A DNA stretch of 53,120 nucleotides from Escherichia coli (GTDB lineage: Bacteria > Pseudomonadota > Gammaproteobacteria > Enterobacterales > Enterobacteriaceae). The translations under genes and the position numbers were made by a program. This document shows positions 40,686-43,173 of this stretch, in pieces. The DNA lies in assembly GCF_003334255.1 (NCBI RefSeq), contig NZ_QOWU01000036.1; one strand, 5' to 3'. Below the pieces are notes generated by a model. The model searched no databases. It saw nothing but the letters and a program-made list of their open reading frames with translations, and was not told the DNA's origin. The stretch's first letter is position 1. Every line of letters starts with the position of its first letter.

Positions 40686-41726
40686 TCATTTATCGGAAGA
40701 CGCCTGCCACAGATTCAGCTCGCCATCGGCGATATGCTGATCAATCTGCGCCAGCTCCTTGGTGCTAAATGTCAGATTATTCAGCGCCTGCACGTTCTCC
40801 TCTAGTTGCTCCGCGCGGCTGGCACCAATCAATACCGACGTCACGCGATCATCTTTCAGCAACCAGCTTAACGCCATTTGCGCCATTGATTGTCCACGCT
40901 GCTGTGCCATTTCATTCAATAAGCGCAGGCTGTTGAGGTTGGCTTCGGTAAGCATTTTCGGTGTCAGACCACGAACTTTATTCCCTTCACGATGCATCCG
41001 TGAATCTTGCGGAATGCCGTTGAGATATTTTCCGGTCAGCAATCCCTGAGCCAGAGGAGTAAAGGCAATACAGCCCACGCCGTTATTTTGCAGGGTATCC
41101 AGCAGGCCGCTTTTATCCACCCAGCGGTTCAGTAAATTGTACGAAGGTTGATGAATTAACAGCGGAATTTTCCACTCGCGCAGCAACTCGACCATTTTTT
41201 GCGTCCGCTCTGGCGAGTAAGAGGAGATCCCGACATACAGCGCCTTACCGCTTTGTACCGCATGAGCCAGCGCAGAGGCGGTTTCTTCCATCGGCGTATT
41301 TTCATCGACGCGATGAGAGTAAAAGATATCGACATACTCAAGCCCCATACGCTTCAGGCTTTGGTCGAGGCTGGCGAGCAGGTATTTACGTGAACCGCCA
41401 GAGCCGTAAGGGCCGGGCCACATATCGTAGCCAGCCTTGGTAGAGATAATCAGTTCATCGCGATAAGCGGCAAAATCCTCCCGCAGCAGGCGACCAAAGT
41501 TCTCTTCTGCGCTTCCTGGAGGCGGCCCGTAATTGTTGGCTAAATCAAAGTGCGTAATGCCCAAATCAAACGCTTTACGCAGGATCGCACGCTGTGATTC
41601 CAGCGCGTTAACGTGACCGAAATTGTGCCATAAACCGAGCGATAACGCGGGCAGGCGTAAACCACTTTTTCCGCAATAGCGGTATTGCATCTGCCCGTAA
41701 CGTTCGGGATTCGCTAACCAGACCAT
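40686..41726 (-). CDS. gpr: L-glyceraldehyde 3-phosphate reductase (aldo-keto reductase)
   Basis: 346-aa AKR ORF (yghZ) MVWLANPERYGQMQYRYCGKSGLRLPALSLG... Confidence 0.9.
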   Translation of the reverse strand: MVWLANPERYGQMQYRYCGKSGLRLPALSLGLWHNFGHVNALESQRAILRKAFDLGITHFDLANNYGPPPGSAEENFGRLLREDFAAYRDELIISTKAGYDMWPGPYGSGGSRKYLLASLDQSLKRMGLEYVDIFYSHRVDENTPMEETASALAHAVQSGKALYVGISSYSPERTQKMVELLREWKIPLLIHQPSYNLLNRWVDKSGLLDTLQNNGVGCIAFTPLAQGLLTGKYLNGIPQDSRMHREGNKVRGLTPKMLTEANLNSLRLLNEMAQQRGQSMAQMALSWLLKDDRVTSVLIGASRAEQLEENVQALNNLTFSTKELAQIDQHIADGELNLWQASSDK

Positions 41727-41880
41727 GACCTCTCCTTTCCACCGTTCAATTTCGAAACAATGTTTCTAGTTTAGCGATTCGCCAGCGCGTATCCCGTAGT
41801 CTGGCTCACAGAGTGACGAAAAACTGGGCAAAAACACGTGCTTATGCTTTGCTTAAAAAAACACCAACTGAGGAGTGCAA

Positions 41881-42767
41881 CGATGCCGCGTTTAACCGCC
41901 AAAGATTTCCCACAAGAGTTGCTGGATTACTATGACTATTACGCTCACGGGAAAATCTCGAAACGTGAGTTCCTCAACCTTGCGGCGAAGTGCGGTAGGC
42001 GGGATGACGGCATTAGCGTTGTTTGATTTGCTCAAGCCAAATTATGCGCTGGCGACTCAGGTAGAGTTTACCGACCCGGAAATTGTTGCTGAGTACATCA
42101 CGTATCCTTCGCCAAATGGTCACGGCGAGGTGCGGGGTTATCTGGTGAAGCCCGCAAAGATGAGCGGCAAAACGCCAGCCGTAGTGGTGGTGCATGAGAA
42201 TCGTGGACTGAATCCGTATATCGAAGATGTGGCACGGCGAGTGGCGAAGGCGGGGTATATCGCCCTGGCACCTGACGGCTTAAGTTCCGTTGGAGGTTAT
42301 CCGGGAAATGATGATAAAGGTCGTGAGCTGCAACAGCAGGTTGATCCAACAAACTGATGAATGATTTCTTTGCCGCAATTGAGTTTATGCAACGCTATCC
42401 GCAAGCGACAGGCAAAGTGGGTATTACCGGATTTTGCTATGGCGGTGGCGTATCGAACGCGGCGGCTGTCGCGTATCCGGAACTGGCCTGCGCGGTGCCG
42501 TTTTATGGTCGTCAGGCACCCACTGCCGATGTGGCGAAGATTGAAGCGCCTTTACTACTCCACTTCGCGGAACTGGACACCCGAATCAACGAGGGCTGGC
42601 CTGCTTACGAGGCGGCGTTGAAAGCCAATAATAAGGTTTATGAGGCGTATATCTATCCGGGGGTTAATCACGGATTCCATAATGATTCCACGCCCCGTTA
42701 TGACAAATCTGCCGCCGATCTTGCCTGGCAAAGGACACTGAAATGGTTCGATAAATATCTCTCCTGA
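41881..42767 (+). pseudogene. yghX: Dienelactone-hydrolase-family gene split into three reading frames
   Basis: Three consecutive ORFs in different frames (41838..42026, 41932..42357, 42357..42767) together resemble one ~290-aa dienelactone hydrolase; frame changes near 41990 and 42350. Confidence 0.8.
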
Positions 42768-42885
42768 TAGGTTTATCTCTTACGGGATTACGTCTTAAAC
42801 AAGCATGAAAAAATAGCGTGCGCAAAAGTCGTTCTTTGCCTAAAATATCGCTATATATGACAATATATAGCGAATGAGGTGAACG

Positions 42886-43173
42886 ATGAATAACCATTTT
42901 GGTAAAGGCTTAATGGCGGGATTAAAAGCAACGCATGCCGACAGTGCGGTTAATGTGACAAAATTCTGTGCCGATTATAAACGCGGTTTTGTATTAGGCT
43001 ACTCACACCGGATGTACGAAAAGACCGGAGATCGCCAGCTTAGCGCCTGGGAAGCGGGTATTCTGACGCGCCGCTATGGACTGGATAAAGAGATGGTAAT
43101 GGATTTCTTTCGTGAGAATAATTCCTGTTCTACGTTGCGCTTTTTTATGGCCGGTTATCGCCTCGAAAATTGA
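42886..43173 (+). CDS. yghW: DUF2623 family protein
   Basis: 95-aa [27 protein letters not shown]... Confidence 0.85.

Follow-up and report, generated by a model that had tools for sequence, protein, structure and literature searches.

Positions 41883-42767 on the + strand of the Escherichia coli DNA analyzed here (53,120 nucleotides of contig NZ_QOWU01000036.1, hereafter the window) are, with a probability that we put at about 0.95, a dead copy of the hydrolase gene yghX, which suffered first a 2-bp and then a 1-bp deletion and whose translated 47-aa stub is the small protein YqhI. The pseudogene status of yghX is already known, both from RefSeq annotation and from the metabolic-engineering literature, where "the pseudogene yghX locus" of W3110 serves as a neutral integration site (PMC7677707), a use that recurs across many papers of that field. 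As a textbook K-12 pseudogene and routine neutral integration site, the locus has little general biological weight; what is gained here is the exact definition of its lesions, along with their order and their distribution over 5426 genomes. Those who work on YqhI should be aware that it is a pseudogene stub, present in a minority of E. coli only.

Limits of the locus, its lesions and its fragments

Alignment to intact alleles, for which the 888-nt yghX genes of strains HH97 and KE41 were fetched, identifies the segment as a yghX of 885 nt including the stop codon, versus an ancestral 888 nt encoding 295 aa. The copy in K-12 DHB4 is labeled "YghX family hydrolase, frameshifted" (pseudo) in RefSeq; its CDS limits map onto the same positions, and the alignment and difference list show that the two coding sequences agree base for base. 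In the window, as in K-12, HH97, KE41 and BL21, the gene is placed between the upstream, divergently transcribed gpr (40686-41726) and yghW-hybO. The sequence-only reading of this DNA had taken the locus for yghX disrupted by two frameshifts and had stated that the K-12 gene is a pseudogene too. Both statements are borne out by the RefSeq label, by the identity to the K-12 coding sequence, in which the DHB4 copy is flagged as frameshifted and has the same lesions, and by the intact orthologs at the same locus. The start at 41838 given there is wrong, as the GTG at that position is a mere mechanical beginning of an open reading frame; the gene begins at the ATG at 41883, which is backed by a GAGGAG sequence 7 nt upstream and by the RefSeq CDS boundaries (Table 1).

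Table 1. Features of the yghX pseudogene in the window
Feature	Coordinates	Strand	Evidence
Shine-Dalgarno GAGGAG, 7 nt upstream of ATG 41883	41870..41875	+	read from sequence
yghX pseudogene	41883..42767	+	RefSeq K-12 DHB4 CDS mapping and intact-allele alignment
Fragment 1 = yqhI, 47 codons and TGA	41883..42026	+	translation; match to sequence in PMC6001520; PF23678
Lesion 1, 2-bp deletion (TA or AT)	junction 41990..41991	+	alignment columns 109-110, difference list, probes
Fragment 2, +1 frame, ancestral residues 38-157	41992..42357	+	ORF translation; NF041440 34-155
Substitution G→A	41997	+	alignment; sole point difference from HH97
Lesion 2, 1-bp deletion	42349..42351	+	alignment column 470, difference list, probes
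Fragment 3, original frame, ancestral residues 160-295 and stop	42357..42767	+	ORF translation; NF041440 158-292
Codon of inferred triad residue C186 (fragment 3)	42435-42437	+	invariant in ortholog alignment
Codon of inferred triad residue D233 (fragment 3)	42576-42578	+	invariant in ortholog alignment
Codon of inferred triad residue H264 (fragment 3)	42669-42671	+	invariant in ortholog alignment

Exactly three events in 888 nt separate the window from the intact HH97 allele, namely two deletions and one substitution. The first deletion (GTATG→GTG) turns the ancestral AAG-TAT-GCG into AAG-T-GCG, with loss of part of the codon for Y37 and a change of frame to +1; it falls directly after a conserved 10-residue motif, at the point where a hydrophobic stretch begins. 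The second, at about 42350 (CCAACCAAA→CCAACAAA), turns CCA-ACC-AAA into CCA-AC-AAA, removing one C from the codon for T157, whereupon the original frame is regained. The substitution is synonymous in the ancestral frame (GTG→GTA, V39), so that putting back TA and C recreates the HH97 protein exactly. The sequence-only reading had proposed that such an alignment to an intact ortholog be made; the result upholds its site near 41990 and its count of two indels, but not the size at the first site, which it had regarded as a single-base indel.

On the + strand of 41838-42767 there are three open reading frame pieces (41838..42026, 41932..42357 and 42357..42767). These had been read, with peptides quoted from each, as consecutive parts of one protein of the dienelactone hydrolase family, and this is confirmed by an end-to-end match to the NCBIfam model NF041440 (YghX family hydrolase). 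They had also been assigned to three frames, but single-frame translation from 41883 reveals only two: the pieces with MPRL... and MNDFF... are in phase, as the two deletions together remove 3 bases, and the middle piece alone is in +1. Fragment 1 comprises residues 1-36 of the ancestral protein and 11 out-of-frame residues, after which reading from the ATG at 41883 ends at the TGA at 42024-42026; its 47 aa are the longest in-frame product from the true start in the window. Fragment 2, for which the mechanical start is the ATG at 41932, takes in what is left of the hydrophobic N-terminal segment as well as the first half of the α/β-hydrolase fold (including VVVHENRG), and finishes with ...VDPTN and a TGA at 42355-42357. 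Lesion 2 cuts the fold at residue 157 and divides the domain between fragment 2, which has its N-terminal half, and fragment 3, which has the complete predicted catalytic triad (see below).

The curated cutoff of NF041440, which applies to the whole protein, is 460 bits. Fragment 1 matches model positions 1-35 (55 bits, E 5e-15), fragment 2 positions 34-155 (234 bits, E 2e-69) and fragment 3 positions 158-292 (262 bits, E 5e-78), each falling below the cutoff though well outside what chance would give, whereas the intact 295-aa ortholog scores 587 bits. As the fragments tile positions 1-292 of the model, the locus belongs to the family, though as a broken rather than a functional gene. The return of the last third to the original frame would be without consequence because the stops in between block read-through, and none of the fragments could be an active hydrolase, since the fold is split at residue 157 and the triad residues are all in fragment 3. 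With the fold split and a stop codon at 42024-42026, we infer that a full-length product is not made and that the enzyme function is lost.

Relative to the K-12 pseudogene, with which it shares both deletions, the substitution and the neighbors (gpr; yghW, hybO), the window differs from DHB4 over 7 kb at two positions, 41835 (C vs T) and 44234 (G vs T). The former lies in the divergent intergenic region between gpr and yghX, 48 nt before the start of yghX/yqhI. When the 1021 bp around the gene were used as a query, all K-12 matches were 99.9% identical and several non-K-12 isolates matched at 100%, and the window is therefore a close relative of K-12 and not K-12 itself.

The intact YghX protein

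An intact 295-aa yghX is retained in BL21, in O157 strains and in other Enterobacteriaceae. Its products in HH97 (WP_001137768.1) and BL21 (WP_001424373.1) are encoded at the same locus and belong to the same NF041440 family as the window copy; they differ in that the intact gene makes a 295-aa protein and the window copy cannot. Full-length orthologs of 294-299 aa with 85-92% identity are found in Citrobacter, Pseudescherichia, Enterobacter, Kosakonia, Leclercia and Silvania. Pfam searches with the intact protein recover the DLH domain (PF01738) at residues 84-294 (E 3e-48) and the YqhI-like domain (PF23678) at residues 1-36. In the window the DLH domain is not contiguous: lesion 2 interrupts it at residue 157, and lesion 1 puts it out of the frame set by the start codon. 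A structure deposited as "Uncharacterized protein" (PDB: 4zv9) aligns to residues 59-294 and is essentially identical to YghX over this range, while the more distant structural matches are dienelactone hydrolases (e.g. 1din, E 5e-15).

The likeness to dienelactone hydrolase (Pseudomonas ClcD, PDB: 1din) consists in a common domain family, a G-x-C-x-G elbow (GFCYG in YghX), and a conserved aspartate and histidine. In the ortholog alignment C186 (which is in GFCYG), D233 and H264 are invariant, as is Y37, and by the family motif Cys186-Asp233-His264 is the predicted catalytic triad. Dienelactone hydrolase is, however, only distant kin: YghX adds a strongly conserved N-terminal segment of 58 residues with a hydrophobic stretch, and genes of a dienelactone pathway are absent from the vicinity of yghX.

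This N-terminal segment (residues 1-58, corresponding to 41883-41990 of the window and the restored frame beyond) is almost invariant across genera of Enterobacteriaceae, a degree of conservation well above that of ordinary signal peptides. It is laid out as a G-K-x-x-K-R-E-F-L motif (S-K-R-E-F-L), the hydrophobic stretch, N-Y-A-L-A and then TQV; the alignment to 4zv9 begins at residue 59. This suggests that the N-terminus marks an exported or anchored enzyme. It may represent a KR-type Tat signal with a chaperone-binding region or, alternatively, a membrane anchor with a cytoplasmic peptide. Tat signals were recognized by an S/T-R-R-x-F-L-K motif, a hydrophobic region, an A-x-A cleavage site and a match to a TAT profile. 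In YghX the pair at the core of the motif is KR instead of RR, and this KR is invariant in the orthologs. No TAT-signal profile matched the intact protein in Pfam, nor its N-terminal 72 aa in NCBIfam at E-values up to 10, and the Tat idea is for this reason a lead at the level of the motif only.

Distribution, order and age of the lesions

To place the two lesions in a population context, the segment 41780-42800 was used as a megablast query against 5426 complete E. coli genomes. Every one of them matched at the yghX locus, with match lengths of 1021, 1022 or 1024 bp. Junction-specific probes of 52-54 nt, so designed that every 28-mer seed was forced across the junction, were then used to score each site. 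At site 1 the 2-bp deletion was detected in 1505/5426 genomes and the intact sequence in 3786/5426; at site 2 the 1-bp deletion was detected in 1199/5426 and the intact sequence in 4222/5426. Neither of the site-1 probes matched in 135/5426 genomes, and 257 of the carriers of the 2-bp deletion match with one mismatch in the probe (e.g. PEC1020, G114A); given these genomes, additional alleles or lesions of yghX probably exist. A joined probe of both deleted alleles matched 1505 genomes, 1195 of them across both halves. Since the probe for the 2-bp deletion had given the same total, the 1-bp deletion never occurs without the 2-bp deletion; about 306 genomes carry the latter by itself. Consistent with this, a joined probe with site 1 intact and site 2 deleted gave no 100% match among the best-ranked matches listed for the complete E. 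coli genomes. The intermediate state is exemplified by CUVET20-PYO1, which has an 886-nt yghX allele with lesion 1 only that is annotated as frameshifted. This strict nesting indicates that the 2-bp deletion came first and that the 1-bp deletion arose later in a sub-lineage.

These observations bear directly on whether the indels are errors of sequencing or assembly, in which case the true gene would be a single 295-aa reading frame. That is merely the default worry for any frameshift, and nothing specific speaks for it here. Neither lesion is in a long homopolymer (GTATG→GTG and AACCAA→AACAA); the identical junctions recur in complete genomes that were assembled independently (1505 and 1199), several K-12 references among them; and random errors would not yield a strictly nested pattern with an intermediate allele. 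Since the same junctions are found, nested, in so many genomes, the lesions are inherited; on the strength of the junction counts, the nesting and the intermediate allele we reject the alternative, whose probability is practically negligible. The locus displays both a heritable lesion and intact orthologs at the same place (HH97, KE41 and BL21), as expected of a frameshifted pseudogene.

The earlier suggestion of an ancient lesion rather than a sequencing error stands as far as inheritance in 1505 and 1199 genomes is concerned, whereas "ancient" holds merely in a relative sense. The lesions are older than the spread of a large natural clade, yet young by divergence: there is one substitution in 888 nt relative to the intact HH97 allele, and the gene of BL21, likewise a laboratory strain, is still intact. 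Carriers include K-12 MG1655, J53 and C600, and many human, animal and water isolates. Both small deletions are shared by K-12 and about a quarter of the sequenced E. coli, percentages that are not natural allele frequencies because the genome collection is rich in laboratory derivatives of K-12.

A different possibility is that the gene is still functional, either through recoding by a +1 and a -1 frameshift that would leave only Y37 missing, or as a split gene whose parts reassemble and are coupled at the TGATG at 42355-42359. A +1 shift just past the AAG at 41990 would indeed restore the ancestral sequence minus one residue, and in frame 0 the change at 41997 gives rise to AGG, a rare codon. 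At TGATG the stop codon of fragment 2 shares bases with the start codon of fragment 3, a layout that can support translational coupling, and the failure of YqhI alone to complement a yqhI deletion, for which a cryptic ORF or regulatory element has been suggested (PMC11429745; see below), might be accommodated by either scheme. Recoding would, however, require two independent events in series. The second site has no X-XXY-YYZ slippery heptamer at 42344-42357 (GAT CCA ACA AAC TGA), and the first, which needs a +1 shift, has no prfB-type stop or hungry-codon context. As to a split gene, direct reading of the sequence upstream of the ATGs at 41932 and 42357 revealed no Shine-Dalgarno sequence at either, and the TGATG overlap simply reflects the ancestral K-L-M-N codons. 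Moreover, the residue that would be dropped, Y37, is invariant in orthologs; most E. coli simply carry the unshifted gene; the lineage keeps gaining lesions (the second deletion, an IS1 insertion, a recombined patch), which is the pattern of an unselected gene; and engineers have disrupted the locus with no cost reported (PMC7677707). On this population and sequence evidence both programmed frameshifting and a functional split gene are rejected as very improbable.

Taken together, the history of the dead gene can be reconstructed as follows. The ancestral gene encoded a 295-aa protein with a putative 58-residue export or anchor segment and an α/β-hydrolase domain of the dienelactone hydrolase type. 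In an ancestor of K-12 and of many natural isolates, the 2-bp deletion in codon 37 caused translation from the normal start to end after 47 codons. With the gene dead, a sub-lineage then gained the 1-bp deletion in codon 157, and in some strains later damage followed, be it by insertion of IS1 or by recombination of a patch.

The former is seen in strain J6 (NZ_CP195973.1, 404-2065 of the extracted stretch), where an IS1A insertion close to the 3' end of a double-deletion yghX adds a third, independent lesion to the already dead gene. The latter is seen in strain EcN_Sk (NZ_CP172017.1, 459-1343 of the extracted stretch), whose mosaic yghX contains both K-12-type deletions and a patch of 19 substitutions in CDS columns 352-447, most of them in common with the divergent KE41 allele, which suggests recombination within the pseudogene. 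This allele is odd for a strain labeled as Nissle (EcN), as the EcN-derived SYNB1934 perfectly matches the intact site-1 probe.

YqhI as a stub of yghX

The 47-aa product of fragment 1 is letter-identical to the sequence of K-12 YqhI printed in PMC6001520, and its position, with gpr on one side and the yghX remnant on the other, is also the same; the older annotation used in that paper names the K-12 gene yghX_2. YqhI consists of yghX codons 1-36 and 11 residues derived from the frameshift, and the "YqhI-like" entry PF23678 spans exactly those 36. By this correspondence YqhI is the translated stub of the yghX pseudogene. The published studies treat YqhI as a small protein, whereas here the same sequence is recognized as a remnant of yghX: the words "pseudogene" and "frameshift" are absent from PMC6001520 and PMC11429745, and yghX is unmentioned in the latter. 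As promoter, ribosome-binding site and start codon have stayed functional, the cell goes on making the 47-aa stub. In about 70% of E. coli genomes, by contrast, there is no separate YqhI protein, since their site 1 is intact.

YqhI was detected by chromosomal epitope tagging and immunoblotting (VanOrsdel et al. 2018, PMC6001520), and is among 17 small proteins reported from ribosome profiling and RNA-Seq to be induced under Mg2+ limitation (PMC11429745). In the latter study a transcriptional reporter carrying cloned DNA from upstream of yqhI did not respond significantly to low Mg2+; deletion of yqhI lowered the growth yield in low Mg2+, a phenotype that plasmid-borne YqhI failed to complement; overexpression of YqhI had no effect, and the summary table likewise lists none. 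The authors propose a cryptic ORF or a regulatory element as the basis of the uncomplemented phenotype (PMC11429745).

It is conceivable from these data that the stub was co-opted as a new gene, with YqhI having a selected role of its own in low Mg2+. Its production from the chromosomal locus (PMC6001520), the rise in ribosome footprints and RNA-Seq signal under Mg2+ limitation and the reduced yield of the deletion strain (PMC11429745) would all fit such a birth of a gene. Expression is nevertheless expected anyway of a freshly broken gene whose promoter, ribosome-binding site and start codon are intact, and the missing complementation, the lack of an overexpression effect and the unresponsive reporter speak against a function of the protein itself, as do the newness of its 11-residue tail and its absence from the roughly 70% of genomes with an intact site 1. 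We therefore consider gene birth unlikely, and retain the interpretation of YqhI as a stub of dead yghX.

If YqhI is a mere stub, its response to Mg2+ might stem from the signals of the ancestral yghX, in which case intact YghX of BL21, O157 strains and other Enterobacteriaceae would be a low-Mg2+-responsive and possibly Tat-exported envelope hydrolase. We offer this tentatively, at somewhat short of even odds. Intact yghX is strongly conserved and the structure of its product is solved; as the Mg2+-stress regulation of yqhI may extend to this intact gene, BL21 would be a convenient strain for studying it. The residual interest of the locus, which is small, resides in this relationship of YqhI to yghX and in the well-conserved, uncharacterised intact enzyme.

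A scan of 41650-42950 for promoters and terminators, in which total matches were not above those in shuffled sequence, found no sigma-70 consensus on the + strand upstream of yghX. The same terminator scan flagged, on the - strand of the yghX-yghW intergenic region, a perfect palindrome at 42848-42873 with 11-bp arms (TCGCTATATAT-TGTC-ATATATAGCGA), some 13 nt before the ATG of yghW at 42886. It looks more like a candidate operator for a dimeric regulator of yghW.
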